A stretch of 64,000 nt of DNA, taken from positions 17,353-81,352 of the forward strand of contig JBDRHN010000023.1 of the NCBI GenBank assembly GCA_043816765.1. Reading direction: 5' to 3'. The notes beneath the pieces were generated by a model. The model was not told the origin of the DNA and searched no databases. It saw nothing but the letters and a program-made list of their open reading frames with translations. Position 1 is the stretch's first letter; the number at the start of each line of letters is the position of its first letter. The translations under genes were made by a program, and so were the position numbers. This document shows, piece by piece, positions 10,819-50,647 of this stretch. Source of the DNA: a bacterium. GTDB lineage: Bacteria; Patescibacteriota; Patescibacteriia; JBDRHN01.

Positions 10819-12036
10819 TCAATACTGCTCCTCCCAATACTCCACCGTAATCACGGGCGAAAAATCGCTGCCGCCCAAAGTGTCAATAATAACAGAATCA
10901 TCATAACTTATATCCACGCCATTATATAATAACGCGAAATCAACACTTCTCGCTATTATGCCGCCATTTAAAGTAAAGTCGCTTGATAAATTTGTCAAAG
11001 ACAATTCATTTCCTGCATATATCACGCCATTTACAGAAATATCATTAACGCATCGCAAAAACTCTATATTGCTTTTTGAAAACATCCCCGCTGGATATTC
11101 ATCAATATGGTTGATATTTAAAGTGGCGCTATAATCAGGGCAAACTTGCCACCATTTCTTATCGCGCCCAACAGTTATTTTTCCGCTTGTCGCCAAAACC
11201 CCGTTTACTGTTAAATCATGATTGTCTTCTATAATAATATTGCCAGAGACATAAACTGCCCCATCAAACGTGACAGGACCCGAATCCAATAAAACGTTAA
11301 ATTCCGCTTTTGAATAATACTGTCCGAGCAATTGCGCTTGCGACTTGAATGAATCCGGATCAAAAGAATCAAAATCAACAGCCGGTATATCTAAATATTC
11401 AGGAGCGGGAGGATTCACATTTGCAGAATGCATTTCAGCGGCATTTATAGTTGAAAAACCCAAAATAAAAATATCATCCGCGGCTTGCGCCTTGTCCTGC
11501 GCGTCAACAACACTGGCAAGGGTTGCCACTATATCATCATTCGCAAAAATGCTTCCATTGTCAATATCAATATCCGCCGCCGCAACATCAATATCTTGAT
11601 CTGCCAAAATCGCGTTATTATCAATCGCGCTCTCCCCCAACGCTTTAAAAATTTTCGTTTTTATCACTCGCTTGGATTGCTTGTTTCCAAAAGACATCGC
11701 GCTTGCCGCGGTAACATCCGCTTTCGCAAGATCATAATTTTGTATTAAAATATCAAAACTTCCATTGGCGAACAATTCAGAACCACCGCTATAGCTTTGC
11801 GTCCAATTTGAATCTGTTTCAAAATTATTTTCCCATGCAGGATCGTTTTTTAATTTCCAAATAACATATTCAATCCCGGATTCCGCCATATAATACGTCT
11901 GCTGAGATATGGAATAACTGTCTGAAATCCGTTTTTCGCTTAACGTCGAAGTTAAAAAAAAACAACCCATTGTTATCAACAAAGAAGTAAAAAGAATAGC
12001 CGGGATAAGAGCGAAACCGCTGGAATATTTATTCAT
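10819..12036 (-). CDS. large secreted pilus-associated protein with pilin-like N-terminal hydrophobic segment
   Basis: MNKYSSGFALIPAILF.. prepilin-like leader lacking Glu5; Asp-rich beta-type repeats; heads pilin cluster. Confidence 0.55.
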   Translation of the reverse strand: MNKYSSGFALIPAILFTSLLITMGCFFLTSTLSEKRISDSYSISQQTYYMAESGIEYVIWKLKNDPAWENNFETDSNWTQSYSGGSELFANGSFDILIQNYDLAKADVTAASAMSFGNKQSKRVIKTKIFKALGESAIDNNAILADQDIDVAAADIDIDNGSIFANDDIVATLASVVDAQDKAQAADDIFILGFSTINAAEMHSANVNPPAPEYLDIPAVDFDSFDPDSFKSQAQLLGQYYSKAEFNVLLDSGPVTFDGAVYVSGNIIIEDNHDLTVNGVLATSGKITVGRDKKWWQVCPDYSATLNINHIDEYPAGMFSKSNIEFLRCVNDISVNGVIYAGNELSLTNLSSDFTLNGGIIARSVDFALLYNGVDISYDDSVIIDTLGGSDFSPVITVEYWEEQY

Positions 12037-19712: not shown

Positions 19713-20138
19713 TTAAACCGCGCCAGCCAATCTTTCTAGTCTTATAACTCTTTTTTCTATCCTCTCAACTTCTTCAACATCTACCTTGCGGCGAAGCATA
19801 CTTTTAACCTCAGTTAAATCATCTTTAATTACTTCTTGTCCTTTTTCAAGATTAGCTTGTCCTTTTCCGAGATTAATTATTTTATCTTTAATTGTTTCTT
19901 GTCCGCTTTCAAGATTAATTATTTTATCTTTAATCACCGCTTGCCCATCTTCAAGATTCGCCTGCCCCTTTTTAAGACCAACTATTTCTATTTTTATTGT
20001 ATCTATGATTTCACTCTGTTTTTTTTGTTCAATAGCGACAACTTCAGTAAAATCACGGTTCATTTTAATACCCTCGCAAACTATATCTAACTTACTTCGA
20101 AAATCTTCAATTAAAGCTCCTATTTTATAATCCTCCAT
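19713..20138 (-). CDS. hypothetical coiled-coil protein with four tandem 11-aa repeats
   Basis: GQANLEDGQAVIKDKIINLESGQETIKDKIINLGKGQANLEKGQEVIKDD; 33-nt DNA repeats 19830-19990. Confidence 0.6.
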   Translation of the reverse strand: MEDYKIGALIEDFRSKLDIVCEGIKMNRDFTEVVAIEQKKQSEIIDTIKIEIVGLKKGQANLEDGQAVIKDKIINLESGQETIKDKIINLGKGQANLEKGQEVIKDDLTEVKSMLRRKVDVEEVERIEKRVIRLERLAGAV

Positions 20139-20195
20139 AAAATTTTTATTAAGTTAATTATGTTTTTATTGTATTATAACAATCTAATGATGTCA

Positions 20196-20339
20196 ATTTT
20201 TTTCATCCTCCTTGCCGTCAATAATATTATCTAAAAATTTAATCGCGTCGTCTGCATTATCAAAAGAGTAATAATCGCCATTTTTTCTTTCTTCTTCTGA
20301 TTCTTTTAAAATTTTAATCAAATAATCTGTTGGTTCCAT
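20196..20339 (-). CDS. possible small acidic protein (48 aa)
   Basis: ATG..TGA ORF MEPTDYLIKILKESEEERKNGDYYSFDNADDAIKFLDNIIDGKEDEKN, same strand and upstream of repeat protein; below 60-aa track cutoff. Confidence 0.25.
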
Positions 20340-20377
20340 ATAACAATTTTTAAATTAAGTAAAATAGATTATTTCAC

Positions 20378-21511
20378 TCAAGTCAAAATCTCCCCCAACC
20401 TCCCGCTTTCAATCCCCTCTTTTATTTCCATTCCAATCCTCTGGCCATAACTGATTGAACTTCCATGCAAATAAGAAGTATATGGGGTGAAAATTGTTCC
20501 GGGAGAACCGGGGATTCGCATGCTAATGTCAAATATTACAATCTCTTCTTTTCCGTCTTGCGCCGCCACGGCACCCTGCAAAGCAAACGGACCAATAATT
20601 CCCGGCGCGCATTCTTGTTTTGAAACTTTAATAAACTTTTCTCCCAGTTCATACATCTTTTCAATAATAGACTCTTTAGTCGTGCACGCTATGTGTCCGG
20701 TTTCGATAAGTGTCGGTTTTACTTTCCCAGAATTTAAAAGTTCAGCCTGAATATCTGCTGGCAAGCGAAGCAAACCGTCAAGATTTGTCTGTCTACGAGT
20801 ATCTGTTCCCATTAATTCAAGCTCATCATTTAAGTTTGAATAGAAGAAGTTTAAATTCAACTGCGCGCCAATGATGTATTCTTCAATAACAGCTTTTAAT
20901 AAACTTTCATCATTAATTTTTCCTGATCTAATCAAATCCCCAGATACTGTTCTATAAGAATCAAAATCAGTGGCAAAGAAAAAAGAACGTTCATAACTTC
21001 GCTCTAATTCATTAACTTTTACAATCACCAGACGATCAATTTTTTTGGGATCATTAAAAATCTTAGGCATCCTGATCTTTGCTTTCTGCATTAAATAATA
21101 TTGATTCTTAGGAACATCACGCTCTTCAAGTTTCAACATTGAACGAGTTCCGTAAATCGGAACTAAAAAATCATTTTCAATTTTTTTAAAATCAAAATAA
21201 ACCCAAAAATAACGGTTGTGAATAAAAATTGTGTTCTTTTTAATTAGTTTATTTTGAACCTCTTTTTTTGTAATATCGCTGAATTTATCCAAAATTATAG
21301 TCTCATCAACGCAACCTTTCCCGTTTCGAGTTTTGTAATATTTATCATAAGTTTTCTCTCTCCCCTTTTGACAAACAACCAAAGTTTTAAACCCCAATTT
21401 TTTCGCCCCATTACAAACATCCAAAGCCGAGTGCCCACCCAAAACGCCAATGGTTATATTGTTGGCATCGTAATTTTTGATAATGTCTTTGATTTTATTT
21501 TGTGTTATCAT
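20378..21511 (-). CDS. PurP-like ATP-grasp (FAICAR synthetase family paralog, divergent)
   Basis: ITIGVLGGHSALDVCNGAKKLGFKTLVV and C-terminal PurP-like region; ORF-track N-terminus (MGWRRGSASSLQ) is translated palindrome, trimmed. Confidence 0.75.
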   Translation of the reverse strand: MITQNKIKDIIKNYDANNITIGVLGGHSALDVCNGAKKLGFKTLVVCQKGREKTYDKYYKTRNGKGCVDETIILDKFSDITKKEVQNKLIKKNTIFIHNRYFWVYFDFKKIENDFLVPIYGTRSMLKLEERDVPKNQYYLMQKAKIRMPKIFNDPKKIDRLVIVKVNELERSYERSFFFATDFDSYRTVSGDLIRSGKINDESLLKAVIEEYIIGAQLNLNFFYSNLNDELELMGTDTRRQTNLDGLLRLPADIQAELLNSGKVKPTLIETGHIACTTKESIIEKMYELGEKFIKVSKQECAPGIIGPFALQGAVAAQDGKEEIVIFDISMRIPGSPGTIFTPYTSYLHGSSISYGQRIGMEIKEGIESGRLGEILT

Positions 21512-21525
21512 AAAGTTAGTGTTTT

Positions 21526-21584
21526 GTAGAGACGAGGCACTGCCTCGTCTCCAGCCCAAGACGCGGCAGTGCCTCGTCTCTACA
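21526..21584. repeat. family A palindrome, two adjacent copies between the purP paralogs
   Basis: GTAGAGACGAGGCACTGCCTCGTCTC and AAGACGCGGCAGTGCCTCGTCTCTACA. Confidence 0.85.
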
Positions 21585-21586
21585 AA

Positions 21587-22603
21587 TCATCCTAAAACCT
21601 TCTCCAACTTATCCTGCTCAATCGCCATCTTAATATCTCTCGCTATACGTCGACCAGTACTCATCGGTTCATCATAACGAAGCCAAGTATAAGGAGAACC
21701 ATTTACAAAAGGATTCGTGCCAGCCACAATACGAGCTGAAATTTCAAAAATATAAAAATCTAAATTTGGATCAATTACTCCTTCCAAACAAAAAGGACCG
21801 AACAGTTCGCGACCAGTCAATTTTTTCGCAACTTTCACAACCGCTTCGCCCATTTCAAAAATTTTAGGTAAAAGAGACTCGCGCACAACAAGCGGAATGT
21901 TTCCCGTCACAGTATAGCTTGTGCGAATATCAGCGGTAAGTTGATCGCGAGCGGCGATACGTCCGATTGAATCAGCGTTTGACTCATAACGACTATCAAA
22001 ACCCATTACTTCCAATTCTTTGGTTAATGGGGAATAAAAGTAATGGACATAAATAGGAACTCCGACAATATATTCCTGCGTAGTTTGCCGCCGCCCTTTC
22101 GCGTATTGAGCAACCCCTTCGTTGAATTCGTCTTGATTGTTGGCGATAAAATATCCCTTTCCGCCCGATGCGCCGTCATATTTTACAATAACAGCGCGAT
22201 CAATATCTTTTGGATCTTTATAAATCTTGGGTAATTTTAATCCCGCCTTTTCAAGCCACTGCCGTTCTTTTGTTCTGTCTGACTCCCATTCTAAAATCTC
22301 TTTGTTGCCGTAATACATTGCTTTAACTTTCTTAACATTTTGAAATCCCAAGTATGCGACAAAAGAACCATGCGGAATAATAATAGAATTTGATTTGATA
22401 ATCTGTTTTTCAATATTAAAATAATCTTTAAAAGAGTCAACTTCTATAAATTCATCGGCAACCTTATAACTTTGATAAGGCTTCATCTTTCCTTTTTCCG
22501 CTATGCAAACAGTTGAAAAACCCTCATCCTTTGCCCCCTTTAAAATCTGTAGAGCGCTATGGCTGCCCAAAGTAGCAATTTTATAATTAGAGATCTTGCC
22601 CAT
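21587..22603 (-). CDS. purP: 5-formaminoimidazole-4-carboxamide ribonucleotide synthetase (archaeal-type PurP)
   Basis: IATLGSHSALQILKGAKDEGFSTVCIA...HGSFVAYLG...ILEWESDR... aligns along full length with Methanocaldococcus PurP as recalled. Confidence 0.8.
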   Translation of the reverse strand: MGKISNYKIATLGSHSALQILKGAKDEGFSTVCIAEKGKMKPYQSYKVADEFIEVDSFKDYFNIEKQIIKSNSIIIPHGSFVAYLGFQNVKKVKAMYYGNKEILEWESDRTKERQWLEKAGLKLPKIYKDPKDIDRAVIVKYDGASGGKGYFIANNQDEFNEGVAQYAKGRRQTTQEYIVGVPIYVHYFYSPLTKELEVMGFDSRYESNADSIGRIAARDQLTADIRTSYTVTGNIPLVVRESLLPKIFEMGEAVVKVAKKLTGRELFGPFCLEGVIDPNLDFYIFEISARIVAGTNPFVNGSPYTWLRYDEPMSTGRRIARDIKMAIEQDKLEKVLG

Positions 22604-22752
22604 ATTGACTTTGTTAATATTTTCAATATTATATATTTTTTTATAAAAAATGGCAAATCGTTTTTAAAAAAGTTGAACTTTTAAGAGCAAATGCTATACT
22701 AAAAGAGTCAAAAGTTAGCGACCTTAAGGACTTTATAGGCTTTTGACTTTTT

Positions 22753-24222
22753 ATGACCATTGACGATTTACTGGAAATTGTTAAAAAAAATATTCCAAAT
22801 GCCGATCTGAATATGATTAGGCTTGCTTATGATTTCGCGGAAGAAGCCCATCGCGGACAGAAAAGAGCGAGCGGGGAAGATTATATTCAGCACTCGCTTC
22901 ACACAGCCAAAAATTTGGCGAAACTTCATTTGGATGAAACAATGGTAATAGCGGGAATATTGCATGATGTTCCCGAAGACACATCAAGAACAATAAATGA
23001 TATTAAAAAAAATTTTGGCGATGATATAGCTAATTTGGTAAATGGAATAACCAAGCTTGGGACTATTAAATACCGAGGCATTGAACGTTATATAGAAAAT
23101 TTGCGCAAAATGTTTGTAGCGGTGGCGGCAGACATTAGGGTTATCTTGATAAAATTCGCCGATCGCATTCACAATCTGCAAACCCTTTACGCGCTTCCGC
23201 GCGATAAACAACTGCGCATCGCAAGCGAAGTAATGCAAATTTACGCTCCGATTGCTAATCGTTTGGGAATGTGGGAGCTAAAAGGTCAAATGGAAGATGA
23301 AGCGTTTAAATATCTTCACCCAAAAGAATACGCCAAAATTAAAGATATTATTGATCCATACTACCAAAAAAGCGTTGATATTTTAGAAGAAATCAGAACC
23401 AAAATAGGCGAGATAAGCAAAAAAAATAATATTGAAATAAAAATTATTCAGGGCAGAGCCAAGCATTTATATAAAATTTATAAAAAACTTCAAAAGCACG
23501 ATAACGATATTAATAAAATTTATGATTTAATCGCGAATAGAATAATTGTTAATAGCATTTCTGATTGCTACGCTGTTTTGGGATTAATTCACGAGCAATG
23601 GAAACCGCTTAAGGGAAGAATTAAAGATTATATATCACAGCCAAAACCAAACGGATACCAGTCGCTTCACACAACAGTTTTCGGACCGGGAGGGCGGCCG
23701 ATTGAATTTCAGATCAGGACAAAAGAGATGCATGAAGAAGCCGAATACGGCATAGCGGCGCACTGGCATTATGACGAAACCTTTCACTCGGAAGAAGGAA
23801 CAAAATTATCCAATAAAAAATTAAGCTGGGTTAAAGAATTAACAAAATGGAAAAAAAATCTTGATGATAATAAACATTTTTTAGAAGATCTTAAATTGGA
23901 TGTATTTCAAAATAGAATTTTTGTGTTCACGCCAAAGGGGGACATTATTGATCTTGCAGAAGAGAGTACTCCTGTTGATTTTGCTTATCATATACACACA
24001 GAGATAGGGAATGGTTGCGTCGGCGCTATGATAAATAATCACATGGCGAGTCTTGATACCAAATTAAAAAGCGGCGATATGGTGGAAATTATTGTTGATA
24101 AACACAGAAAAAAACCAAGCCGCGACTGGCTTAAATTCGTTAAAAGCAATGTGGCTAAAAATCACATAAAACAAGCGACAAGAATAAAAATACCGTTTAT
24201 GGGGAAAAGGTATTTAAACTAA
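22753..24222 (+). CDS. rel: short bifunctional (p)ppGpp synthetase/hydrolase (HD + synthetase + TGS, no ACT)
   Basis: HD motif ILHDVPED, synthetase region YQSLHTTV, TGS-like C-terminus; 489 aa. Confidence 0.88.
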   Translation: MTIDDLLEIVKKNIPNADLNMIRLAYDFAEEAHRGQKRASGEDYIQHSLHTAKNLAKLHLDETMVIAGILHDVPEDTSRTINDIKKNFGDDIANLVNGITKLGTIKYRGIERYIENLRKMFVAVAADIRVILIKFADRIHNLQTLYALPRDKQLRIASEVMQIYAPIANRLGMWELKGQMEDEAFKYLHPKEYAKIKDIIDPYYQKSVDILEEIRTKIGEISKKNNIEIKIIQGRAKHLYKIYKKLQKHDNDINKIYDLIANRIIVNSISDCYAVLGLIHEQWKPLKGRIKDYISQPKPNGYQSLHTTVFGPGGRPIEFQIRTKEMHEEAEYGIAAHWHYDETFHSEEGTKLSNKKLSWVKELTKWKKNLDDNKHFLEDLKLDVFQNRIFVFTPKGDIIDLAEESTPVDFAYHIHTEIGNGCVGAMINNHMASLDTKLKSGDMVEIIVDKHRKKPSRDWLKFVKSNVAKNHIKQATRIKIPFMGKRYLN

Positions 24223-25407: not shown

Positions 25408-25802
25408 ATATGAAATGCTTTGAATAATAATGGCGCATTGCGAAGATAAAAGGCTGGTTTGCTGGTGCTAACCGTTCAATGTCATTTTAACATTCTTACA
25501 ATGAAGTCTGTCCGTATTTTTCCACGACTTCCCACGCCATTTCAAACATTGCTTTTTGAATATTCGCAAAAAACTGGCTTGTGATCATAATGCCCATTCT
25601 GTTGGGCTTTTGTGGCAGGACTATTACTACTTTGTCTTCATAAATATTTATCTCGCAATTAAATAGATAATTAATTTTTTAAATCATCATCATTATACTC
25701 CAAACACCAATGTTTGGCAAAAAATCAACACTCTTGACATATTTTTTAGTTATGTTATCCTATACATATATGCACAAGATAAACAAACTAAATACTGATA
25801 AA

Positions 25803-26342
25803 ATGGCTAATATAGCCCAAATAGGTGAAATTATGTTTCATGCCAAAGATTTGGCTGGTTTGTGGCGAATAGAAAATACAAATACTTTATATAATACAAT
25901 AGCAAGGTATGTGAAAAAAGGGGCATTATTTAGAATTTACAAAGGATTTTATTCCATAAAACCTATTGATGAAATTGACCCTTTTGTACTGGGAACCAAA
26001 GCCATTCATAAATATTGCTATATAAGCGCGGAAACTGTTTTGACAAACAAAGGGATTATTCAACAAAATATTGATCAAATTACTTTTATGGCAAGCAAGA
26101 CAAAAAAATTAAAAATAGGCGATAATAATTATTATGTGAGACAGCTTGATGAAAAATATTTATATAACTCGGAGGGGATAAACGCTAAAGATAATTTCAA
26201 AATAGCTTCATTGGAGCGAGCTGTTGCTGATATGCTTTATTTTAATCCAAAAACTTTTTTTGATGCTAAGAATTTAATTAACTGGCAAAAAATGAGGGCT
26301 ATCCAAAAAAAAATCGGATACCCTTTGACCGATAGACAATAA
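25803..26342 (+). CDS. abiEi: AbiEi-family antitoxin / transcriptional regulator
   Basis: AbiEi_4-like wHTH N-domain; immediately upstream and co-oriented with AbiEii; start trimmed to 25803. Confidence 0.6.
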   Translation: MANIAQIGEIMFHAKDLAGLWRIENTNTLYNTIARYVKKGALFRIYKGFYSIKPIDEIDPFVLGTKAIHKYCYISAETVLTNKGIIQQNIDQITFMASKTKKLKIGDNNYYVRQLDEKYLYNSEGINAKDNFKIASLERAVADMLYFNPKTFFDAKNLINWQKMRAIQKKIGYPLTDRQ

Positions 26343-26347
26343 ATGAT

Positions 26348-27136
26348 ATGATTATATCAAACTCAAAAGATGCAATTCATAAAGCATGGCTTTTCCGCTT
26401 GCTTAACGCAATTTATGATAATGCGTTTTTAGCTAATAATTTATATTTTAAGGGCGGAACTTGCGCGGCTATGCTTGGATATTTAGATCGGTTTTCAATT
26501 GATTTGGATTTTGATTTGGCTGCTGAAAACAAATCCCCCCAACCCCCCTTTGCGAGAGGGGGAAATATTGAAAAAAATTTGGAAATAATATTTAAAAAAT
26601 TGGGGCTTTCTATCAAAGACAGAAGCCAAAAAGCGCCTCAATATTTTTTAAAATATCCAAGAAAAGAAAACGAGAGAAATACAATTAAAATAGATATTAC
26701 AACAGATGCGCCAAAATCCAATATTTATAAACCAATGATTTTTAAAGATATTGATAGAATTATAAATTGCCAAACCATAGAAACGATGTTTGCAAATAAA
26801 TTGGTTGCGCTTATTGATAGGTTTGAAAAAAATGGATCTATCGCAGGACGTGGTTTATATGATATTCATCATTTTTTTATCAAAGGTTTTAGATATAACA
26901 AAGAGGTAATTATTGAAAGAAGAAAAAAAGATTTGATTTCTTTTTTTGATGAGTTGATTTTATTTATAGAAAAAAATATAAATGAAACTGTTATAAATCA
27001 GGATTTGAATTATCTTTTGCCAAATGATAAATTTCAGGCGATACGAAAAGTTTTAAAAAATGAAACAAAAATGTTTTTAGAAGACGAGATGGGGATATGC
27101 GAAAAAAAATTAATACCAATGTCTAATGCGGCATAA
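26348..27136 (+). CDS. abiEii: AbiEii/AbiGii nucleotidyltransferase toxin with in-frame GC-palindrome insertion
   Basis: LYFKGGTCAAMLGYLDRFSIDLDFD signature; insertion KSPQPPFARGG at 26531-26566. Confidence 0.75.
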   Translation: MIISNSKDAIHKAWLFRLLNAIYDNAFLANNLYFKGGTCAAMLGYLDRFSIDLDFDLAAENKSPQPPFARGGNIEKNLEIIFKKLGLSIKDRSQKAPQYFLKYPRKENERNTIKIDITTDAPKSNIYKPMIFKDIDRIINCQTIETMFANKLVALIDRFEKNGSIAGRGLYDIHHFFIKGFRYNKEVIIERRKKDLISFFDELILFIEKNINETVINQDLNYLLPNDKFQAIRKVLKNETKMFLEDEMGICEKKLIPMSNAA

Positions 27137-31974: not shown

Positions 31975-32073
31975 CAAAAACCTGTATCCTGAACTGTCAC
32001 CGGATGGTGGCGTGGCTGGGACTCCCAGCATAGGGACGTGGTTGGGAAAAGCCCTTTTTTAGGGCGTTTTTTT
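31975..32073 (+). ncRNA. candidate small RNA (~100 nt) ending at intrinsic terminator
   Basis: no CDS; GC-rich structured core; terminator GCCCTTTTTTAGGGC + T7 at 32051-32073. Confidence 0.4.
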
Positions 32074-32442: not shown

Positions 32443-33444
32443 CTATAACGTCGTAATCGGCCTTGACTGCGTGATATAAAATTTACCTTTTGAAAAAGCC
32501 CATTCAATGTCTTGCGGTTTTTTGTAATGCTTTTCAATTTGACAGCAAATTTTGGACAGTTCAATTATTTGCTTGTTATTTAATTTCTGTTTTTCTTGTT
32601 TTGATTTTGAAACAGGTTGCCACACAATTCCTGAACTGGTTGAATTTTTGCGAACCAACATTTTTTCTTGCTCTGCAATATTTATATCTAAAATTTCAAA
32701 TTCTCCATCGTAGAGACGAGGCACTGCCTCGTCTCTATACTTGTTCACAATATAACTGTCCGGCGTTATCTGTCCTGAAACTATCGCCTCTCCCAGTCCG
32801 TATCCGGCTTCAATGATCATCTGATTTTTATCTTTTGTGATGGGGTGAACAGTGAAACAGACCCCTGATATTTCTGACTGGATCATTTTCTGAACCACAA
32901 CGGCAACGCCGATTTTTTGGTCAACTAAATTTTTTTCATAACGGTAAAAAATCGCTCTTGAGGTATAAAGCGATGACCAGCATTTCTTAACGTTTTTTAA
33001 AAGCGTTTTTTTTGTTGTGTTTAAATATGTTTCCAGCTCCCCGGCCCATGACGCTACTATTGAATCTTCTGCTGTGGCTGAACTGCGCACCGCCACAGAT
33101 TTTGCTTTAAGTTTTTTAAATTCCGCGTTAATTTCGTTAATTAAAACTTTCTGAATTTTGGTGTCGTTTATAATATCGCGAATAATATTAGACGCGCGGT
33201 CAATGGAATTTATGTCATCAAAATTTATTTGAGATAATTGGGCTTTTATTTCCAGCCCGACTTCCGCTGTCTCCGCGCGCGATCTCGCGCTTAAAAAATA
33301 ATCAAATGCGTCGGCTAAAATAACAAAACCATTCGGAACCGGAATTTTTACGTTAATCATTTCTCCGAGCGACGCGCCTTTCCCGCCGGCGGTTTTAATG
33401 TCTCTTGCGGAGATTTTTGAGAATGGGGAGGTGAATTTTGGCAT
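32443..33444 (-). CDS. PPDK_N-type ATP-grasp protein (PEP synthase / rifampin phosphotransferase N-domain family), stand-alone, with in-frame palindrome insertion
   Basis: GGKGASLGEM motif, RSSATAEDS, DIEWA..QSRPIT; insertion YRDEAVPRLYDGE at 32710-32738. Confidence 0.8.
   Translation of the reverse strand: MPKFTSPFSKISARDIKTAGGKGASLGEMINVKIPVPNGFVILADAFDYFLSARSRAETAEVGLEIKAQLSQINFDDINSIDRASNIIRDIINDTKIQKVLINEINAEFKKLKAKSVAVRSSATAEDSIVASWAGELETYLNTTKKTLLKNVKKCWSSLYTSRAIFYRYEKNLVDQKIGVAVVVQKMIQSEISGVCFTVHPITKDKNQMIIEAGYGLGEAIVSGQITPDSYIVNKYRDEAVPRLYDGEFEILDINIAEQEKMLVRKNSTSSGIVWQPVSKSKQEKQKLNNKQIIELSKICCQIEKHYKKPQDIEWAFSKGKFYITQSRPITTL
32710..32738. repeat. family A palindrome inside PPDK_N CDS (in frame)
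   Basis: GTAGAGACGAGGCACTGCCTCGTCTCTAT. Confidence 0.85.
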
Positions 33445-33448
33445 AGTT

Positions 33449-34687
33449 TTATTTTAAAATTTTTATTATTCCTTTATCTGCGTCAACTTCAACTACATCT
33501 CCAGTTTTAATAATTTTCGTAACATCTTTTATAGCAATAATACATGGGGTGCCGAGTTCTCTGGAAATTACCGCCGCATGCGTTGTAATGCCTCCGGTTT
33601 CAGTTAAAACAGCCGCGGCTTTTTTCATGGCTGGCACATATCTGGTTGATGTATATGCGGCAACTAAAATATCTCCTTTTTTTATTGAAGCAAGCGCGTC
33701 ATCTTTTCCGTTTGTTACAACTGCCTTTCCTTTTGTCTTGCCTGGCGATGCGGGTTGTCCTTTAAGCACTTTTTGATTCCCAACAGGAAATACTTCGGTT
33801 AGTTTCCCTTTTTCAAGAAAACGTTCCGCTTCATTTCCTTGATAAATTTGTAATTTTTTTCCTTGATAAAAAAGTATAGTCAATTTTTTGCGTTCTGAAA
33901 TAAGTTTTGTGGGGGGCGTTTTTGTTGCTATCATTTGTCTAATTTCTTTTGGTAAAAGAAATAACGTATCTTTAGTGTCTGAGAGTTTAATCCTGTTCGC
34001 AATCTGCAGAAGAAGTTTATTCCAAAAAACAGCGCGTTCTTCTGTAAATAAGGCGGATCCATCAGCTCTAATATACGCTCCGGCGCGCAATATTGTGCTT
34101 AAATTTTCCTCTTTTTTGTTTAAACGAAAAGCTCCATTTAATTTAGGCATGAGTATCTTTACATAACGAGTTTCGCGGAGCGGTTGTGTGTAGTAAATTT
34201 TATTTTGATCAACTTCTTTTGCATTATCGCTATATTCTGATAATGCCTCAAATAAATCTTCTCCAGTGAGAGAACTAAACATATAAAGCATATTACTTAC
34301 TGCGGCTATGGGAACGCTTAGTTCAAACCCCGAAAGAAATAATCTGCAAAGTTCGGCATCCGAAATATTGTCAAATTTTACAGAATTATTTTCTTTTAAA
34401 AATTTTCTTAGTTTTATTTTTTCTGCTTCATAAAAATTTAATACGTTTTTAATCCATTTGGTATCGTTTAATTTATTGCGAAAACATTTTGAAAGATGAA
34501 TAACATCATCCTCAAGCCCATATTTTTTCTGCTCCCCGTTTTTAATAATTGATAACAATCTATAACGACAACCGCACAAATTTTCAAATATTTCAAAAAA
34601 TTCTTCGCCCGCAAAAGCAACAGCCTGAAGCGGCACAATATCAACACTAAAAAATAATTCGTATTTTTTGTTTTTAAATTTGATCAT
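33449..34687 (-). CDS. PEP-utilizing-enzyme mobile (phosphohistidine swivel) domain protein with ~260-aa unknown N-terminal domain
   Basis: C-terminal ETGGITTHAAVISRELGTPCIIA swivel signature; no PEP-binding TIM barrel. Confidence 0.75.
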   Translation of the reverse strand: MIKFKNKKYELFFSVDIVPLQAVAFAGEEFFEIFENLCGCRYRLLSIIKNGEQKKYGLEDDVIHLSKCFRNKLNDTKWIKNVLNFYEAEKIKLRKFLKENNSVKFDNISDAELCRLFLSGFELSVPIAAVSNMLYMFSSLTGEDLFEALSEYSDNAKEVDQNKIYYTQPLRETRYVKILMPKLNGAFRLNKKEENLSTILRAGAYIRADGSALFTEERAVFWNKLLLQIANRIKLSDTKDTLFLLPKEIRQMIATKTPPTKLISERKKLTILFYQGKKLQIYQGNEAERFLEKGKLTEVFPVGNQKVLKGQPASPGKTKGKAVVTNGKDDALASIKKGDILVAAYTSTRYVPAMKKAAAVLTETGGITTHAAVISRELGTPCIIAIKDVTKIIKTGDVVEVDADKGIIKILK

Positions 34688-34829
34688 TTTTTTTTATATT
34701 AATTTTTTAAAAAAATATTCCGCTTAATCAAGAAACCGCTCGATCTTTTTTGAAACATATTTCGTTAATTGGACAAATTTGTCCATATACTGAAATGGTA
34801 TATTTTATTTTAAAAACATTGCCAAATTT

Positions 34830-36215
34830 TTAACTTAAAATTTTTATAATCCAAATTGGAAAAATATTTCGTTGCGCGGAAAATTCCAGTTTATCTTTTG
34901 AAATTATTGTATAAACATCGCCGGCTTTTTGCGCCTTTCGCCTGATAAATGCCATATCGCCCTCTTTAATGCTTGAAGTATGCTTCACTTCAAAATAGCG
35001 ATAACTTTTTTTGTCCATCAAATCTTTGGCGGCAATAAAGTCAAATTCTTCTTTTCTGATCCGGCAAAAAGCAATATATTGATACTGCTCCCGCAATATG
35101 TTGTAGAAATAATTTTCCACCAAGAAACCTGCTGCAGGAGAATCAACCGCCAAATAATCAAGACCGCGAAAAGCGGCATAAAAATTAACGCTTTCCAAAT
35201 AAATTTTTCTTAACAGCCTTCTGGATTTGCGGAAAGATTTAGAAAAATTATACACAAAGTGAATTAAAAAACTGTTTTCAAAATAACGCAAGTACTTATT
35301 GACTGTCTCTTTATTTAATCCTGCTTCGCTTGCCAAATTTCCAATCTCTATAATTGAGCCGATTTCACTAACCGCTATTTGAAATAAAAATTTCAATTCT
35401 TCTATTTTTTCCGCGCCATATATTTTAGGAATATCATATTCCAAAGTTTTTTTATAAACCGCTTCAATTAAATATTTTTTGCGCGTTTCTATGTCAGGCT
35501 CATTAACCAAAACCGGAAACTGGCCAAAAAATAAATAATCGTAAAAATTTTTTTTCAACTCATTCCCCCATTGATAAACTAATTTTTCAATTCCGGACTT
35601 ATCAATCTCTTGTTGCCCTGGCGCGACGGCAAATTGCTGAAAATCAGCAAGCAATTCACTTTGCGCTCCTTTGATAATTAAGTATTCTTCAAAACTTAAA
35701 ACCGGCAATTTAAATTCATAAATCCGTCCGGCTAAACTCTCCGTAGCTTGTTTTTTTATAAACAAAGACGACGATCCGCTGATTACAAACTTCAAATTAG
35801 GCTCCGTATCATAATAGCGCTTAATAATATGCTGCCACTTTAATGCGTATTGCACCTCATCAATAAAAATATACCTCTTTTTGCCGGAAACGTTTGTTTC
35901 CAAAAAAATATTAATATAATCGGTTAAACTTACTTTACTGCCTATCAAATCTTCATCAAGAGTAAGAAAAAAAATATTTTCCGGTTTTGTTTCCTTGATT
36001 ATTTTTTGAATTAGCTGTTTCAAGAGAACGGTTTTTCCGGTTCGGCGCAAACCGATAATTGAAACGATTTCCCTTTTTTCTAAATAAGGAATAATTTTAT
36101 TTAGTAACGTTCTGCTATGCTTTATGGTTTTTAGGTCGGCAAAAAATAAATCAGCATCTTTCCAGTGTTTATTCTGACGATAAATTTCCGCTAATATTAT
36201 ATCTTTTTTGTTCAT
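34830..36215 (-). CDS. AAA+ ATPase, COG1373/DUF4143 family
   Basis: Walker A GLRRTGKT, Walker B IFIDEVQ; family architecture. Confidence 0.8.
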   Translation of the reverse strand: MNKKDIILAEIYRQNKHWKDADLFFADLKTIKHSRTLLNKIIPYLEKREIVSIIGLRRTGKTVLLKQLIQKIIKETKPENIFFLTLDEDLIGSKVSLTDYINIFLETNVSGKKRYIFIDEVQYALKWQHIIKRYYDTEPNLKFVISGSSSLFIKKQATESLAGRIYEFKLPVLSFEEYLIIKGAQSELLADFQQFAVAPGQQEIDKSGIEKLVYQWGNELKKNFYDYLFFGQFPVLVNEPDIETRKKYLIEAVYKKTLEYDIPKIYGAEKIEELKFLFQIAVSEIGSIIEIGNLASEAGLNKETVNKYLRYFENSFLIHFVYNFSKSFRKSRRLLRKIYLESVNFYAAFRGLDYLAVDSPAAGFLVENYFYNILREQYQYIAFCRIRKEEFDFIAAKDLMDKKSYRYFEVKHTSSIKEGDMAFIRRKAQKAGDVYTIISKDKLEFSAQRNIFPIWIIKILS

Positions 36216-36269
36216 ATTACATTTATGAGGGTTATAACAGCTATAATTGTATCATTTATGCTTGTGTTG

Positions 36270-37334
36270 TCAAGCTAATTTTACGATCCTCACAATCCCC
36301 TTTTCCACGTCAACTTCCACTTTGTCGCCGTCTTTTAAAACTTTCGTAGCGATTTTTGTTCCGATGATGCAGGGGATTTTCAGTTCGCGGGCAATTATTG
36401 CGGCGTGGCAAGTTATTCCGCCGTCGTCAGTTATGATGGCGGCGGCTTTTTTCATGCCAACAAGGTGTTCGGGGCGAGTCATTGGCGCGACTAAAATATC
36501 TCCTTTTTCCACCTTGCCGATATTTTGAGCTGTCATAATAATTTTAACTTTTCCTGTGGCTTTGCCTATGGATACCGCAATTCCGCTTATTTCATTTACG
36601 TCTCCAAAATCCAGCCTGTTGACTATATTTAAAAAATTCTTAGCCTCTTGTCCTGCGTAAATATTCGTTATCTTTCCATTTCTATAAATAAACAAGCTCG
36701 CTTTTCTTCTATTTTTTAATTCAGAAACATTAAATTTTTTCGCTAAAATATTTTTGAATTCCCCAGAACAAGAATATCGCAACAGTTCATGATCTATTCC
36801 TGTCCTTCTGCTAATTTCTTTTAAAATTTTATCAGCCAAAGCAATAAAAGCTAAAGTATACACTTTTCTTTGATCCTGCCATTTGATAAATATTTCAGTA
36901 AGCCTTGAAATCGCTTTAATTTCCGGAGTAAATTTGTATTTTCCAAACAATTTTTCTTTTTCCCGTTTATGTTTTTCTAAAATTTTATTTTGCTTATGTT
37001 TAAATATTCTTTTTATTTCGTCTTCCATTTCTTTAAAGCTATATTCTTTGTGCCCGACATAACTTGATTTTATCCATGAATATTTTATCAAATGCGATTC
37101 CGCCAAAATAGCCAAATCTTTTTTCTTGCTAAGAAATTTTTTTAAACTCCCATTCTTGAATCCCGATTTTTTTATTTTAACCGCGATTTTTCTTAAATCA
37201 TCATCCTCTTGGTTTATAAATGACGGATCAATCGGCGCGCTTAAAACGGAAAATATTTTGTGATAATTTTTTATTTTATTTTCTTCGCAATATTTCTTGG
37301 TCAAAAAATCAAATCTTTTATCAGCGTAAAACAT
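36270..37334 (-). CDS. paralogous swivel (phosphohistidine) domain protein with unknown N-terminal domain
   Basis: DDGGITCHAAIIARELKIPCIIG; C-terminal ~150 aa collinear with 33449..34687. Confidence 0.75.
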   Translation of the reverse strand: MFYADKRFDFLTKKYCEENKIKNYHKIFSVLSAPIDPSFINQEDDDLRKIAVKIKKSGFKNGSLKKFLSKKKDLAILAESHLIKYSWIKSSYVGHKEYSFKEMEDEIKRIFKHKQNKILEKHKREKEKLFGKYKFTPEIKAISRLTEIFIKWQDQRKVYTLAFIALADKILKEISRRTGIDHELLRYSCSGEFKNILAKKFNVSELKNRRKASLFIYRNGKITNIYAGQEAKNFLNIVNRLDFGDVNEISGIAVSIGKATGKVKIIMTAQNIGKVEKGDILVAPMTRPEHLVGMKKAAAIITDDGGITCHAAIIARELKIPCIIGTKIATKVLKDGDKVEVDVEKGIVRIVKLA

Positions 37335-37571: not shown

Positions 37572-38783
37572 CTATTCCAAAAATCCAAACAAATACAAAG
37601 GCATCTGTTTGCCGCCGGAAATTAAAATATCGTCTTTAACTAAATAAGAATTTTTGACCTCTTTTATTTGCTTACCCTTTTTGCCGGCTCCGCCGATCTC
37701 TAATGTATATCCATCGCAGATAATATCACCTTGCTTAGAAAAAAATACATTATATCCGGCATTCATCAGATGGCTTACGACAAACAACTCCCTGGTTTGT
37801 CCAAGATCAATCGGTTTGCCGATTGAATTATTGATTGCGCAAAACAAGTTCGTATTATTCAGATAAACTTTTTCTGTATTTCTAATCAAGGCATGTCCTT
37901 GTTTGTTTATTAACAAAAAACGCAATAGTCCGCTTTCTCTCAACATTTCAATATAGTCAGCAATGGTTGTGTGGTCTTTGCCTAAACTTTTAGACAAATT
38001 ATTGACATTTAAACTTCCCGGCTTGCTGGTGGCGAAAAAATAAATAATTTTCCTAAAAACGTCCAGATTATTTGTTTTCAATGAATAAAAAGAGCTGATA
38101 TCCTCAAAAACTGTTTTATTTATAATGCCAAGCAAGGCGTCTTTATAGTCATCATAATTTTCTAACTCCATAAAAATAGGATAATAACCCTGCTTATAAT
38201 ACTCTTTTAAATAACCGATTAATTTTGAAATGTCTGATAATTCTTTTGATATTTTAGAGCCGTCATTGATAATATTTTTTAAAGTAAAAACAGGAAATTC
38301 TTTTTTTAGTTTAACCTCAAGAAATTCCCGGAAAGAAAAGCCGCTCATATATTTTAAATTTGCCCTGCGAGATAAATCATATCTGCCCTTGACAAGATCA
38401 AGACTGGAACTGCCCGAAAAAATAATTTTCATTTTCGGATAAGAATCATAAATATTTTTTAGTTCTTGATTCCAATTTTTATAACGATGAATTTCATCAA
38501 TGCAAATAATTTCGCCGTTATATTCTTTGTGAAATCTGTCGGCTAAATCAATCAAACTATTTTCGGAAAAATAAAGATTGTCGGCAGACACATAAATACC
38601 TTTATCTGTTTTTTGGTATTTCTGTTTAAGGTAATTAAGCAAAAAAATGGTTTTGCCAACGCCTCGCGCGCCAACAACGCCGGTAATTCTGTTGGTTAAT
38701 TTAAAATCAGAAAAAAATTTTCTTTGATAAATAGAATCTATTGATTTTAATAATCTATGATAAGTTTCAATTAAGCTTTGCAT
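37572..38783 (-). CDS. AAA+ ATPase, COG1373/DUF4143 family (second paralog)
   Basis: Walker A GARGVGKT, Walker B ICIDEIH. Confidence 0.8.
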   Translation of the reverse strand: MQSLIETYHRLLKSIDSIYQRKFFSDFKLTNRITGVVGARGVGKTIFLLNYLKQKYQKTDKGIYVSADNLYFSENSLIDLADRFHKEYNGEIICIDEIHRYKNWNQELKNIYDSYPKMKIIFSGSSSLDLVKGRYDLSRRANLKYMSGFSFREFLEVKLKKEFPVFTLKNIINDGSKISKELSDISKLIGYLKEYYKQGYYPIFMELENYDDYKDALLGIINKTVFEDISSFYSLKTNNLDVFRKIIYFFATSKPGSLNVNNLSKSLGKDHTTIADYIEMLRESGLLRFLLINKQGHALIRNTEKVYLNNTNLFCAINNSIGKPIDLGQTRELFVVSHLMNAGYNVFFSKQGDIICDGYTLEIGGAGKKGKQIKEVKNSYLVKDDILISGGKQMPLYLFGFLE

Positions 38784-44501: not shown

Positions 44502-46061
44502 ATGCCAAAAAAAACCAAAATACTATTTCTACTACTCCTCTGTCCTCTGCTCTTTGTGCAACCGATTTTTGCGCAAGAAAAAACGGAACAACAAAAAGAC
44601 GCGTCGGTTGAGTCTGAGGAATCTAAAGCCGAAGAAAACACTGAGGAAGAAAATCAAGAAATAGAACCCATAATAACTTCTGAGGGCGCTATTTTTGTGG
44701 AGAAAAAAATACTGTTTGACGCTTCTGATTCGGTTCTTTTGAATATTCCGGCGCAAGTCAGTTATATTTGGAAATTTGACGACGGAACTTCCGCGAACGG
44801 TAAAGAGGTTTTGCATAGTTTCAAAAAAACGGGAAAGCATAAGGTGGAACTTACAATACAACAAGGCGCGCAAATTAAAGCAGCCGAAAAAGAAATTTTT
44901 ATTTATGATAAAAAGGTTTTATTAATCACAGACAGCGACAAACAAAGCGGACTTGAATTGATTACGGAACAAGCGGCGGATAATGGGGTCTTTCTTAAAA
45001 TGATTTCTGTAACAGAAGAAGAAACCGGATTTTTAACTGAAGAAAAACTTGTCCAAATTATTAAAGAAAACAGCGAATTTATTAATACGGCGGATGTGCT
45101 GATTTTTCACACTAAAACATCTTTAGGGTTGCAATCGTTTACTCGATATTGGCAACTCGCTGAAACCAAACCTGATTTGAAAAATAAATTAGTCGTTAAA
45201 ATTAGCGATGAAAGCATGCTTGTGGCGTCAAAAATCGCGCAACAAAATTTTGATGTTATTACGCCTAATTATATTTTACTGACAAGAAAAGAGGCGTTAA
45301 ATCCTATTTTTGAAACGAAAGATTATACTAAAATCGTTGAAAATCTGAAAAGCAGAGGTATTGAATATCAAATTATTGATGAGAGAACCGAGAGATCAAG
45401 ATTTTTTATTTTATCAAACTGGATTACAAACTTTATCGCAAACGGAATTCCGGCCAATACGATTTATCTTATTTTAGCAATTCCGTTTATCACTTTTATT
45501 ATCGCTTTCGCGCGCCAAGTCGTGGGAATTTCAACTTTCGGGGTTTATACTCCCACGGTTCTCGCGCTTACTTTTTTAATCTTGGGGATATATTTTGGAT
45601 TGGGGGCTTTGCTGATTGTGGTTTTTGTAAGTTATATGCTGAGGCTGGTTTTGCAAAGAATAGAACTTTTGTATACTCCGCGTCTGAGTTTGGCTCTTTC
45701 AACCATCAGCCTTTCTCTGCTCGCCATTATTTGGTTTTTGATAAAATTTGGCAGTCCGATATCGATTCCTCTTGCGATTTTTCCTTTGATTGTTATGTCG
45801 ACAATGTCGGAAAAATTTACCGCGGCGCAGTCTGAAGAAGGTTTGCGCGGAGCTCTCTTTGGCGCTTTTCAAACCATTCTAGTTGCCGTTGCCGCTTATT
45901 ATCTGGTGATTTGGACAGCTTTTTCTAACCTTCTAATGTATCTTCCCGAGCTTATATTTGTTCCTCTTGCCGGAAATATTTTGTTGGGCAAATTTACAGG
46001 TCTGCGCTTGACGGAATATTTCAGGTTTCGCGCGCTGTTCAAGGAACATACTGAAGAATAG
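44502..46061 (+). CDS. secreted/membrane protein: signal peptide, PKD-like ectodomain, C-terminal multi-TM (7TM-like) domain
   Basis: signal peptide LLLLCPLLFVQPIFA; PKD-like YIWKFDDGTSANGKEVLHSFKKTGKHKVELTI; ~7 TM helices in C-terminal 230 aa. Confidence 0.75.
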   Translation: MPKKTKILFLLLLCPLLFVQPIFAQEKTEQQKDASVESEESKAEENTEEENQEIEPIITSEGAIFVEKKILFDASDSVLLNIPAQVSYIWKFDDGTSANGKEVLHSFKKTGKHKVELTIQQGAQIKAAEKEIFIYDKKVLLITDSDKQSGLELITEQAADNGVFLKMISVTEEETGFLTEEKLVQIIKENSEFINTADVLIFHTKTSLGLQSFTRYWQLAETKPDLKNKLVVKISDESMLVASKIAQQNFDVITPNYILLTRKEALNPIFETKDYTKIVENLKSRGIEYQIIDERTERSRFFILSNWITNFIANGIPANTIYLILAIPFITFIIAFARQVVGISTFGVYTPTVLALTFLILGIYFGLGALLIVVFVSYMLRLVLQRIELLYTPRLSLALSTISLSLLAIIWFLIKFGSPISIPLAIFPLIVMSTMSEKFTAAQSEEGLRGALFGAFQTILVAVAAYYLVIWTAFSNLLMYLPELIFVPLAGNILLGKFTGLRLTEYFRFRALFKEHTEE

Positions 46062-46064
46062 TTT

Positions 46065-46093
46065 GTAGAGACGAGGCACTGCCTCGTCTCTAC
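46065..46093. repeat. family A palindrome between 7TM gene and ATP-grasp gene
   Basis: GTAGAGACGAGGCACTGCCTCGTCTCTACA. Confidence 0.85.
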
Positions 46094-46109
46094 ATTATTT
46101 TATTAATTT

Positions 46110-48458: not shown

Positions 48459-48511
48459 TTCTTTTTGTATAACAAGGTAATATAAACTAGGTATAAAAAG
48501 CTAAGATTATT

Positions 48512-49450
48512 ATGAAAAAAATAATTGCGATTTATTTTTCCGACCCTGAGCCAATGGGATATCCTTTTGGAAAATCTCAATATTTAGAAATATACAAAGA
48601 AATTATTAGCAAAATTGAAAGCCACGGAATTGATGTTTTTATTGTGCGAGGAGACAGCTATATTTCAGATGGGCGCTTTAAAAGGGCATGGCAATTTATA
48701 GACGGAAACTTAAAAGAATCTAAAGGAGAAATTCGCGCTGATCTTATTTTCAATAGAGATGATAAAAACACCATACCTCTTATCCATGATTGTAAAATCA
48801 TAAATAAGCCGGAATTTGATCAAATGTGTGTTGATAAAATAAAAACATTTGAAGCCTTTCCCGATATTTCTCCGAAAACCGCATATATACATTCTTATCA
48901 AGCATTTTTAGAACAAATTGGTGAATGGCAAATGGAACCTGAGGAAATGATTGTTTTGAAAAAAAATTTTGAAACAGAGGGGCGCGGTATTTTTATAGTT
49001 CCGGTTTCGAATGTAAAAAAAGAATTATACTCAGATTGGAATGATATAATAATTCAGGAATTTTTAGACAGCTCAATTGGCATTCCGAATATTACAAATG
49101 GTTTACATGATTTGCGCGTAACAGTAATTAATGGCAGGCCGATAAATTCATTTCTTCGTGTTCCAAAAGAAGGGAGTTATCTTGCAAATGTTTCTCAGGG
49201 CGGACAGGGCACATCAATTGATCTTGATAATGTTCCGAAGGATGTTATTGATCTTGTTTGTCGCATTGACGAAAAAGTAAAAAAATATTTCCCGGCAATT
49301 TATGCCGCGGATTTTATCAATTCACCTAAGGGATATAAACTTCTTGAGTTGAATTCTCGTCCGGGGGTACAGCATCCTGATTGGTCAAAAACTTATAAAA
49401 AATTTAATGATGCTATAATTGATATGCTTGCGGAAGCGATAAAAGAATAA
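48512..49450 (+). CDS. ATP-grasp ligase (RimK/GshB-like)
   Basis: HDLRVTVINGRPI, SQGGQGTSIDLD, YKLLELNSRPG ATP-grasp C-domain motifs. Confidence 0.7.
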   Translation: MKKIIAIYFSDPEPMGYPFGKSQYLEIYKEIISKIESHGIDVFIVRGDSYISDGRFKRAWQFIDGNLKESKGEIRADLIFNRDDKNTIPLIHDCKIINKPEFDQMCVDKIKTFEAFPDISPKTAYIHSYQAFLEQIGEWQMEPEEMIVLKKNFETEGRGIFIVPVSNVKKELYSDWNDIIIQEFLDSSIGIPNITNGLHDLRVTVINGRPINSFLRVPKEGSYLANVSQGGQGTSIDLDNVPKDVIDLVCRIDEKVKKYFPAIYAADFINSPKGYKLLELNSRPGVQHPDWSKTYKKFNDAIIDMLAEAIKE

Positions 49451-49462: not shown

Positions 49463-50647
49463 ATGCAACAAAAAGGAAAATTCGGACAATACGGCGGGGT
49501 GTTCTCGCCGGAAACATTGATGCCCGCTTTGGAAGAGCTTGAAGCGGCTTATTTTAATATTGTTAAAAAAGATAAAAAGTTTAATGCTGAATTAAATTAT
49601 TTATTGCAACAATACGCGGGCAGACCGACGCCGCTTTATTTTGCGGAGAATTTGTCAAAAAAATTGGGACGTAAAATTTATCTCAAACGAGAAGACTTGT
49701 TGCATGGCGGAGCGCATAAGACTAACAATGGTTTGGGGCAAGGTTTGCTTGCCAAATATATGGGAAAGAAAAGGATTATAGCGGAAACGGGGGCGGGGCA
49801 GCATGGGTTTGCCGTAGCGATGATTGGCGCGTTTTTGGGGATACAGACGGAAGTATATATGGGCGTGGAAGATATAGAAAGGCAAAGAATGAATGTTCTG
49901 CGAATGAGGATGTGCGGGGCGAAAATTAATCCGGTTGAAATTCGTCCGGGGGTTGGTTCCCTCAAAGACGCGACTAACGAGGCGATGCGCGACTGGATAA
50001 CAAATGTTCGCACTACTTATTATATAATCGGTTCAGCGGTCGGGCCTCATCCGTATCCAACTATGGTGGCGCAATTTCAGAGAGTTATCAGCAAAGAGAT
50101 AAAAAAGCAGAGCATAAAACAGATCGGTAAATTGCCTGATACTGTGATTGCTTGCGTTGGCGGAGGCAGTAACGCAATCGGCGCTTTTTATGAATTTATT
50201 AATGATAAAAAAGTAAAGTTAATAGGCGTTGAGCCTGCCGGTTTGGGTGTTAATACGACTAAAACCGGAGCGTCAATCGGCAAAGGACGAGATGGAATAT
50301 TGCACGGTTCGCTGTCTAAAGTTCTTCAAGATAAAGACGGGCAAATTAAAGAGGCGTATAGCGTTTCCGCGGGGCTTGATTATCCGGGGGTTGGTCCGCA
50401 ACATGCTCATCTCGCAAAAACAGGGCGCGCGAAATACGAGGCTGTTACCGACAAAGAGGCGTTGGACGCGTTTGAATTGTTGTCAAAGTGCGAAGGAATC
50501 ATTCCCGCGCTTGAATCGGCTCATGCTGTTGCTTATGCTGTGAAATATGCTAAAATATGTCGGAAGGATGAGGTTGTGGTGGTTAATTTGTCGGGGCGGG
50601 GAGATAAAGATATGGAACATGTGAGCTCTCTAATAGGACACAGATAA
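49463..50647 (+). CDS. trpB: tryptophan synthase beta chain
   Basis: full-length TrpB (PLP Lys region [17 protein letters not shown]). Confidence 0.96.

Follow-up and report, generated by a model that had tools for sequence, protein, structure and literature searches.

Two adjacent genes encoding ATP-grasp proteins of the PurP family, named for the formate-dependent synthetase of FAICAR (5-formamidoimidazole-4-carboxamide ribonucleotide), were analyzed within a 64-kb stretch of contig JBDRHN010000023.1 (assembly GCA_043816765.1). This stretch is referred to as the window, and all coordinates are window positions unless stated otherwise. The two genes, designated geneA and geneB, are listed in Table 1 together with the other features discussed. 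Both were found as open reading frames (ORFs) on the minus strand where the original prediction, made from the letters of the DNA alone, had placed them. The ATG used as the start of geneB, at 21511, is common to its homologues.

Table 1. Positions of the gene pair, the associated repeats and signals, and other features of the window
Feature	Position	Strand	Description
geneA	21587..22603	minus	338 aa PurP-family ATP-grasp protein, cluster Ib / PurP II type
geneB	20378..21511	minus	377 aa PurP-family ATP-grasp protein, cluster II / PurP III type
geneA-geneB spacer	21512..21586		75 nt
Palindrome units in spacer	21529..21551 and 21558..21580		
Intercistronic hairpin	21521..21588	minus	two copies of a genome-wide palindrome resembling repetitive extragenic palindromic (REP) elements
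Other palindrome copies	32713..32735, 54422..54444, 16810, 39630, 46068		first two translated in frame
Promoter-like site	22628..22656	minus	TTGCCA-17-TATAAT, 11/12 consensus matches, upstream of geneA
purA	62943..63968	minus	adenylosuccinate synthetase, Pfam Adenylsucc_synt E 1.5e-136; N-terminus beyond window end
PEP synthase/PPDK-like gene	32443..37334		apparently split into one PPDK_N part and two PEP-utilizers parts
AAA_14/DUF4143 ATPase gene	34830..36215		interrupts the PPDK-like pieces
Two further AAA_14/DUF4143 ATPase genes	37572..38783 and 59011..60174		
DUF3800-IX small RNA motif	31979..32047	plus	Rfam, 52.9 bits (gathering score 36.8)
trpB and trpA	49463..52041		no other trp genes
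PD-(D/E)XK nuclease-family gene	50730..51155		between trpB and trpA
Transglutaminase/ATP-grasp cluster	44502..49450		7TM_transglut/PKD protein; ATP-grasp_ST and MATCAP fusion; RimK-like ATP-grasp protein
Defence or toxin-antitoxin genes	25710..27136 and 56414..58400		AbiEii toxin and upstream partner, RhuM-family protein, helix-turn-helix and SocA/Panacea antitoxin-like protein

Family and subfamily of the two proteins

Both proteins matched the Pfam families DUF1246 and DUF1297 over their full length, with scores far over the gathering thresholds (geneA: E 4e-45, 153 bits, and E 2e-69, 234 bits; geneB: E 3e-40, 138 bits, and E 6e-58, 196 bits), which places them in the PurP family as had been proposed. 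They also aligned end to end with the NCBIfam models for formate--phosphoribosylaminoimidazolecarboxamide ligase, the best being NF009779 for geneA (449 bits, cutoff 580) and NF009780 for geneB (292 bits, cutoff 556), scores which fall short of the equivalog level for PurP sensu stricto (cluster Ia). In the PDB the only solved relatives were three PurP structures; geneA matched PF1517 (E 5e-118, 397 bits) and MJ0136 (E 3e-110, 372 bits), and geneB matched MJ0136 best (E 6e-68). An AlphaFold2 model of geneB, with a mean predicted local distance difference test score (pLDDT) of 75.5, found 2R7M as its top fold match (E 7e-33, TM-score 0.81), the next fold family being PurK (E ~2e-9). The purK model TIGR01161 gave 19 bits for geneA against a cutoff of 318 and no match for geneB. 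Membership of PurK or PurT, ATP-grasp families which the original prediction had itself named as examples of a placement that would refute it, was thus rejected on both profile and fold scores. The two proteins were 32% identical to each other end to end (E 4e-57), in keeping with the description of geneB as a divergent paralogue of geneA. The geneB protein was 100% identical to an NCBI entry from a metagenome-assembled genome (MAG) annotated "DUF1297 domain-containing protein [bacterium]".

Archaeal PurP-like proteins have been divided into cluster Ia, which contains the active Methanocaldococcus jannaschii enzyme, cluster Ib (PF1517) and cluster II (PF0421), and cluster II is defined by a His in place of Asn258 and by a 161-165 loop which is two residues longer and is without the (K/R)GG(K/R)G motif (Brown et al. 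2011, PMC3261824). Cluster Ib corresponds to PurP II and cluster II to PurP III in PMC6486802 and Zhang et al. 2008. Residues were numbered after MJ0136 in an alignment of 128 sequences, in which the hallmarks were perfectly bimodal, with Asn in 37 (cluster I) and His in 91 (cluster II). GeneA kept His15, Ser80, an SGGKG loop, Asn235, Ser243 and Arg291, which map to H27, S94, the 161-165 loop, N258, S266 and R314 of MJ0136, respectively. It therefore carries the Asn and glycine-rich loop of cluster I, with Ser replacing K/R at the first loop position, while geneB has neither. Within cluster I, the higher score of geneA against PF1517 than against MJ0136, together with the adjoining cluster II gene, indicates cluster Ib, and in a neighbour-joining tree geneA grouped with PF1517 and a clade from DPANN archaea.

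Comparison of the active sites, which had been suggested as a check on the divergent copy, gave the cluster II pattern for geneB. His273 stands at position 258 and the loop reads NELERSYERS, two residues longer and with no glycines. GeneB further carries S94Y, S123E, E230Q and E310D and a two-residue deletion. These four substitutions, the His and the loop were invariant in all 91 cluster II sequences, and the deletion is likewise invariant in cluster II. Positions S94 and N258 are thus both altered in geneB, while His27 and Arg314, relayed in PMC3261824 as the formyl contacts of MJ0136, are retained in both proteins, and cluster II also keeps Ser266 and the ATP-grasp core residues. With its cluster Ib partner, geneB showed every feature expected of cluster II, and the two genes are accordingly classed, on residue patterns, as an ancient cluster Ib/cluster II paralogue pair.

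Cluster II is highly conserved, with a mean column identity of 78% (21 sequences) and approximately 70% identity across Candidate Phyla Radiation (CPR) bacteria, DPANN archaea and Thermoplasmatota. In the closest relative for which DNA was available, an independent assembly designated L001, the geneA homologue is 87% identical, with a non-synonymous difference of 0.07 and saturated synonymous sites; for both genes the non-synonymous differences were 0.07-0.08, again with synonymous sites saturated. Codon comparison of this kind indicates that geneA and geneB are under strong purifying selection.

Distribution, gene order and the spacer between the genes

A search with the geneA protein returned at least 8000 candidates, of which the best 120 were 66-91% identical. 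The named ones among these 120 were from Patescibacteria, Peregrinibacteria or Gracilibacteria, with one Nitrospirae MAG, and all were bacterial. For geneB, the named matches at approximately 70% identity were from Thermoplasmatota or Woesearchaeota, and a geneB profile run against species-representative genomes gave 448 relatives, the best 80 being archaeal MAGs and two bacteria. The description of PurP as characteristically archaeal therefore holds for the literature, in which purP was confined to archaea in a 2019 survey covering 1,403 complete genomes (PMC6486802), but not for the databases, where named best-120 matches to geneA are bacterial and nearly all CPR. No open-access paper discussing PurP or FAICAR synthetase in CPR bacteria was found, although sequence databases and the NCBI annotation pipeline PGAP already label thousands of such proteins.

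The proposal that the genes arose by tandem duplication was not borne out. Recent tandem duplicates would be each other's closest relatives; here the mutual identity is the 32% given above, and each gene has relatives at about 70-90% identity elsewhere. In the neighbour-joining tree they sit in the two deepest clades of the PurP family. The cluster Ib gene was upstream of the cluster II gene on the same strand in 48 of the 48 loci holding both, a set comprising DPANN-labelled archaea and CPR bacteria, and the genes overlapped or abutted in 13 of these and were separated by 66 nt or less in 29. The order relA-geneA-geneB was repeated in L001. In archaea, PurP II and PurP III occur in the same 61 taxa with one exception (PMC6486802), and adjacent Ib/II pairs are known from Sulfolobales, Pyrobaculum and Korarchaeum (PMC3261824). 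As judged from gene order and sequence, the pair is a conserved operon and not a local duplication.

With respect to the origin of the pair, the bacterial geneA clade was sister to the DPANN clade, while bacterial geneB sequences were interspersed with those of DPANN archaea. Pairwise identities agreed with this placement, geneB being equally close to DPANN (68-72%) and bacterial (61-70%) relatives and geneA being closer to bacterial ones. Replacement of geneB by an archaeal copy was considered and dropped, as the neighbour-joining tree cannot separate replacement from a difference in evolutionary rate. Because the same Ib-then-II arrangement is found in DPANN archaea and in many CPR bacteria, the pair was likely inherited as a unit following an old inter-domain transfer, for which we infer the direction archaea to CPR.

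Genes for purine synthesis were found beside many of the related pairs. At least nine Peregrinibacteria-like CPR contigs carried the arrangement purH-bacA-[Ib-II]...purN, one of them also with purL, and in these purH lies 3-9 kb from the pair. On a 766-kb bacterial contig (L109) the pair is convergent with purA-guaA-purB-purC, followed by purM, and no purH was present within 10 kb of the pair. In DPANN loci the pair is associated with guaA, purF, purD and purA. Peribacteria have been described as having essentially complete nucleotide synthesis and no folate synthesis (PMC4736985). Since relatives with the pair carry purine genes nearby, a reading confined to salvage is unsupported for the pair's family as a whole. 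A different setting was seen in Thermoplasmatota (L003-L078), where the cluster II gene stands alone, always immediately downstream of the archaeal threonyl-tRNA synthetase gene (ThrRS), often with GcvT and GcvH upstream and with a convergent 5-formyltetrahydrofolate (5-formyl-THF) cyclo-ligase gene downstream; this is a one-carbon metabolism neighbourhood and not a pur cluster.

The spacer between geneA and geneB holds, as had been noted, two copies of a palindrome, GAGACGAGGCAsTGCCTCGTCTC (full unit GTAGAGACGAGGCAsTGCCTCGTCTCTAC). Six copies were present in the window at three or fewer mismatches, with 0 expected, and a seventh at four mismatches. As RNA, the spacer hairpin was predicted to fold with approximately 30 base pairs (free energy -55.5 kcal/mol, z-score -10.6), and it is unlike an intrinsic terminator because no T-tract follows. 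None of the 140 related loci contained the palindrome, and the spacer of L001 is 333 nt and contains a different long inverted repeat (L001 positions 11018..11350, TGTCATTCCGACCCGCCGGGAGGAATCCC ... GGGATTCCTCCCTGCGGGTCGGAATGACA). On these two grounds the palindromes came later, colonizing a pre-existing spacer, and did not create the pair, contrary to the suggestion that they had mediated a duplication. The presence of different repeats at the same place suggests that small palindromic elements have landed in this spacer more than once.

Elsewhere in the window the 29-nt palindrome is translated in frame within two intact ORFs, the PPDK_N gene (...YRDEAVPRLY...) and a TsaE gene (...VETRQCLVST...), and a further copy lies between groES and groEL. 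Such in-frame insertion in genes resembles the palindromic elements of Rickettsia.

A consensus scan, by which promoter-like sites were not significantly enriched over shuffled sequence, placed one such site upstream of geneA; the spacer contained none, which makes co-transcription of the two genes plausible. Near the pair in the window and in L001, L080, L085 and L109, no Rfam family scored above threshold, and hence no ZTP or purine riboswitch was found there; with permissive settings, 20000..23000 yielded nothing but spurious sub-threshold matches of microRNA hairpins to the palindrome. The TGA stop of geneA (21587..21589) shares its reading frame with the ATG of geneB, with 25 sense codons between them. 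The shared frame is probably coincidental, given that geneA-geneB overlaps of -4 or -1 nt occur at other loci. Recoding or read-through of UGA was rejected, as other long ORFs of the window end at TGA and homologues stop at the same residue.

Host and other genes of the window

The window is bacterial in character, containing the S10 and spc ribosomal operons and genes for EF-Tu, GroES/EL, FtsH, a class A penicillin-binding protein and RelA/SpoT. Its GroEL is 100% identical to a MAG protein encoded on the same 88,428-bp contig. The nearest named relatives of this GroEL are from Falkowbacteria and Parcubacteria (75-79% identity), and the host is a Parcubacteria-like CPR bacterium. Chimeric assembly or archaeal contamination was rejected on the basis of the bacterial flanks, the GC content of the pair being equal to that of the flanks, the matching gene order of an independent assembly and the presence of the host palindrome in the spacer. 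The neighbours of the pair are relA/spoT and ftsH.

The purA gene anticipated by the original prediction was confirmed, and the window has no purine gene besides it and the pair; searches of the window by tblastn with PurH, PurL, PurN, PurF, PurD, GuaA and PurA queries detected purA only. The nucleoside deoxyribosyltransferase-like gene mentioned alongside it gave a weak match of 28.0 bits, just under the gathering score of 28.8.

Several other arrangements were observed away from the pair. The gene resembling phosphoenolpyruvate (PEP) synthase or pyruvate phosphate dikinase (PPDK) is apparently split, with one of three AAA_14/DUF4143 ATPase genes interrupting its pieces. A DUF3800-IX small RNA motif was also detected. 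The trpB and trpA genes have a nuclease-family gene between them. A further cluster encodes a 7TM_transglut/PKD protein, a 782 aa fusion of ATP-grasp_ST with the tyrosine carboxypeptidase-like MATCAP domain, and a RimK-like ATP-grasp protein, and may represent a system for ligation and trimming of peptide tails. Defence or toxin-antitoxin genes are located in two places.

Proposed function and comparison with known systems

By analogy with MJ0136, we consider it reasonably likely that the role of the pair is the folate-independent, ATP- and formate-dependent formylation of 5-aminoimidazole-4-carboxamide ribonucleotide (AICAR). This chemistry is established for the M. jannaschii enzyme (Ownby et al. 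2005). GeneA and geneB would form a co-oriented, probably co-transcribed operon of the kind on which archaea appear to rely when they lack, or supplement, the folate-dependent PurH formyltransferase. From homology with M. jannaschii PurP, formate would be activated by ATP and the formyl group passed to the 5-amino group of AICAR, giving FAICAR with no folate. FAICAR would then be converted by a cyclohydrolase to inosine monophosphate (IMP), which would pass to PurA as its possible consumer. GeneA and geneB probably cooperate, either as a hetero-oligomer or in consecutive steps, as suggested by their strict co-occurrence, their universal order with frequent overlaps and the reported inactivity of Pyrococcus proteins on their own, while the remodelled pocket of cluster II may leave room for a distinct second activity.

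A number of observations weigh against a role of the pair in formylating AICAR. The scores of both proteins stay under all NCBIfam equivalog cutoffs, and the isolated P. furiosus Ib and II proteins are reported as inactive (PMC3261824, citing Zhang et al. 2008). The invariant changes of cluster II include S94Y and N258H at substrate contacts, with S123E and E230Q nearby, and its substrate or reaction may consequently differ. Neither an IMP cyclohydrolase nor a source of AICAR is encoded in the window. Many CPR relatives encode full-length PurH close to the pair, beside which the pair would be redundant if it did not provide a way around folate. The family tree was built by neighbour-joining without bootstrap support. 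With respect to a complex of the two proteins, clustering of the family at 50% gave 612 representatives, and no Ib-II fusion occurred among the best 150 of these (none exceeding 417 aa), so that gene fusion lends no support to it.

Three other explanations were weighed against the same evidence. It is possible, if rather unlikely, that the paralogues catalyze different steps, with Ib formylating AICAR and II carrying out a distinct reaction, either the IMP cyclohydrolase step missing in archaea without PurO or the cyclohydrolase domain of PurH, or a ligation with a related ribonucleotide as substrate; in that case the operon would be complete in itself as a folate-independent module leading from AICAR to IMP. 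The invariant active-site changes of cluster II set against its retained His27, Arg314, Ser266 and ATP-grasp core are in keeping with this, as are its extreme conservation and the L109 pair, which sits in a pur cluster with no nearby purH. Duplicate purP also corresponds with the absence of purO or of the PurH cyclohydrolase domain, although Brown et al. call this phyletic correlation imperfect (PMC3261824). Many CPR relatives, and Methanosarcinales, have the pair in addition to PurH including its cyclohydrolase domain. Furthermore, ring closure to IMP needs no ATP, and yet cluster II keeps the ATP-grasp architecture. A function outside purine synthesis altogether, as an ATP-grasp ligase on another one-carbon or cofactor-related substrate kept beside PurH for a different job, is distinctly improbable. 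It would account for the reported inactivity of the Pyrococcus proteins in vitro (as relayed in PMC3261824), for the coexistence with PurH in CPR relatives, for the one-carbon setting of the Thermoplasmatota genes and for the relA/spoT and ftsH neighbours seen here. Opposed to it are the crystallization of PF1517 with AICAR and nucleotides (from the PDB titles), the conserved formyl- and phosphate-contact residues of geneA and the repeated linkage with pur genes seen both in bacteria and in DPANN archaea; in addition, purine synthesis is retained in archaea that have PurP II and III alone and lack PurH, and extracts of Sulfolobus put formate into IMP (both PMC3261824).

The reading given in the original prediction, a recent palindrome-mediated or palindrome-followed tandem duplication of an archaeal-type purP serving partial purine salvage in a host without de novo synthesis, is extremely unlikely as a whole. 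The genes are indeed adjacent and co-oriented with two palindromes between them, purA is their only companion in 64 kb, and the host GroEL is closest to that of Falkowbacteria and Parcubacteria, a group which usually lacks nucleotide synthesis. Moreover, Korarchaeum cryptofilum has an adjacent Ib/II pair and no de novo pathway (PMC3261824). The duplication part is refuted by the low mutual identity and deep separation of the clades, by the constant order in 48 loci from two domains, and by the absence of the palindrome from 140 related loci with a different repeat in the nearest relative; the salvage part is not refuted. A bolder version of AICAR formylation by the pair retains salvage. The Ib/II operon would be an obligate two-component, folate-independent AICAR-to-IMP module, passed between DPANN archaea and CPR bacteria as one unit, which in a Parcubacteria-like host without de novo synthesis would salvage AICAR (ZMP) from other cells into IMP for PurA. 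We regard this version as unlikely; were it true, cluster II would have a new activity or be an essential partner subunit, which would explain the reported inactivity of the Pyrococcus proteins alone.

The locus is a bacterial member of a known and conserved archaeal enzyme pair, and as such is a modest, incremental extension. PurP has been treated as an archaeal signature, while this locus and its relatives show the Ib/II pair to be widespread in CPR bacteria, in which it is frequently integrated into bacterial clusters of purine genes, beside PurH. The role of PurP II and III has been in question since 2008, and small bacterial genomes which have the pair with or without purH offer natural contrasts and new test proteins. 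The pair suggests a folate-independent route to IMP in organisms unable to make folate.

In comparison with known systems, PurK and PurT share the superfamily fold and are the next-best structural matches, though far weaker ones than PurP (E ~2e-9 versus 7e-33). PurH, the bifunctional AICAR formyltransferase/IMP cyclohydrolase, catalyzes the step presumed for the pair but has an unrelated fold, is folate-dependent and was not found in the window by tblastn. MJ0136, the M. jannaschii FAICAR synthetase (cluster Ia / PurP I; PDB 2R7K-2R7N), has the same Pfam architecture and ATP-grasp fold as both proteins. The alignment of geneA to it spans both proteins (E 3e-110), with H27, S94, N258, S266, R314 and the Gly-rich loop all conserved, and the geneB model superposes on it with a TM-score of 0.81 but differs in His at 258, Tyr at 94 and the longer glycine-free loop. 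MJ0136 is, however, a single gene without a partner, and geneA is closer to cluster Ib. The two genes also resemble the archaeal Ib and II pair, for example PF1517 with PF0421: PF1517 is the best match of geneA (397 bits), geneB has every published cluster II hallmark, and the genes are adjacent and co-oriented in Crenarchaeota, Korarchaeum and DPANN loci as they are here. The present pair differs from these in its bacterial host and in a spacer which carries host-specific palindromes.

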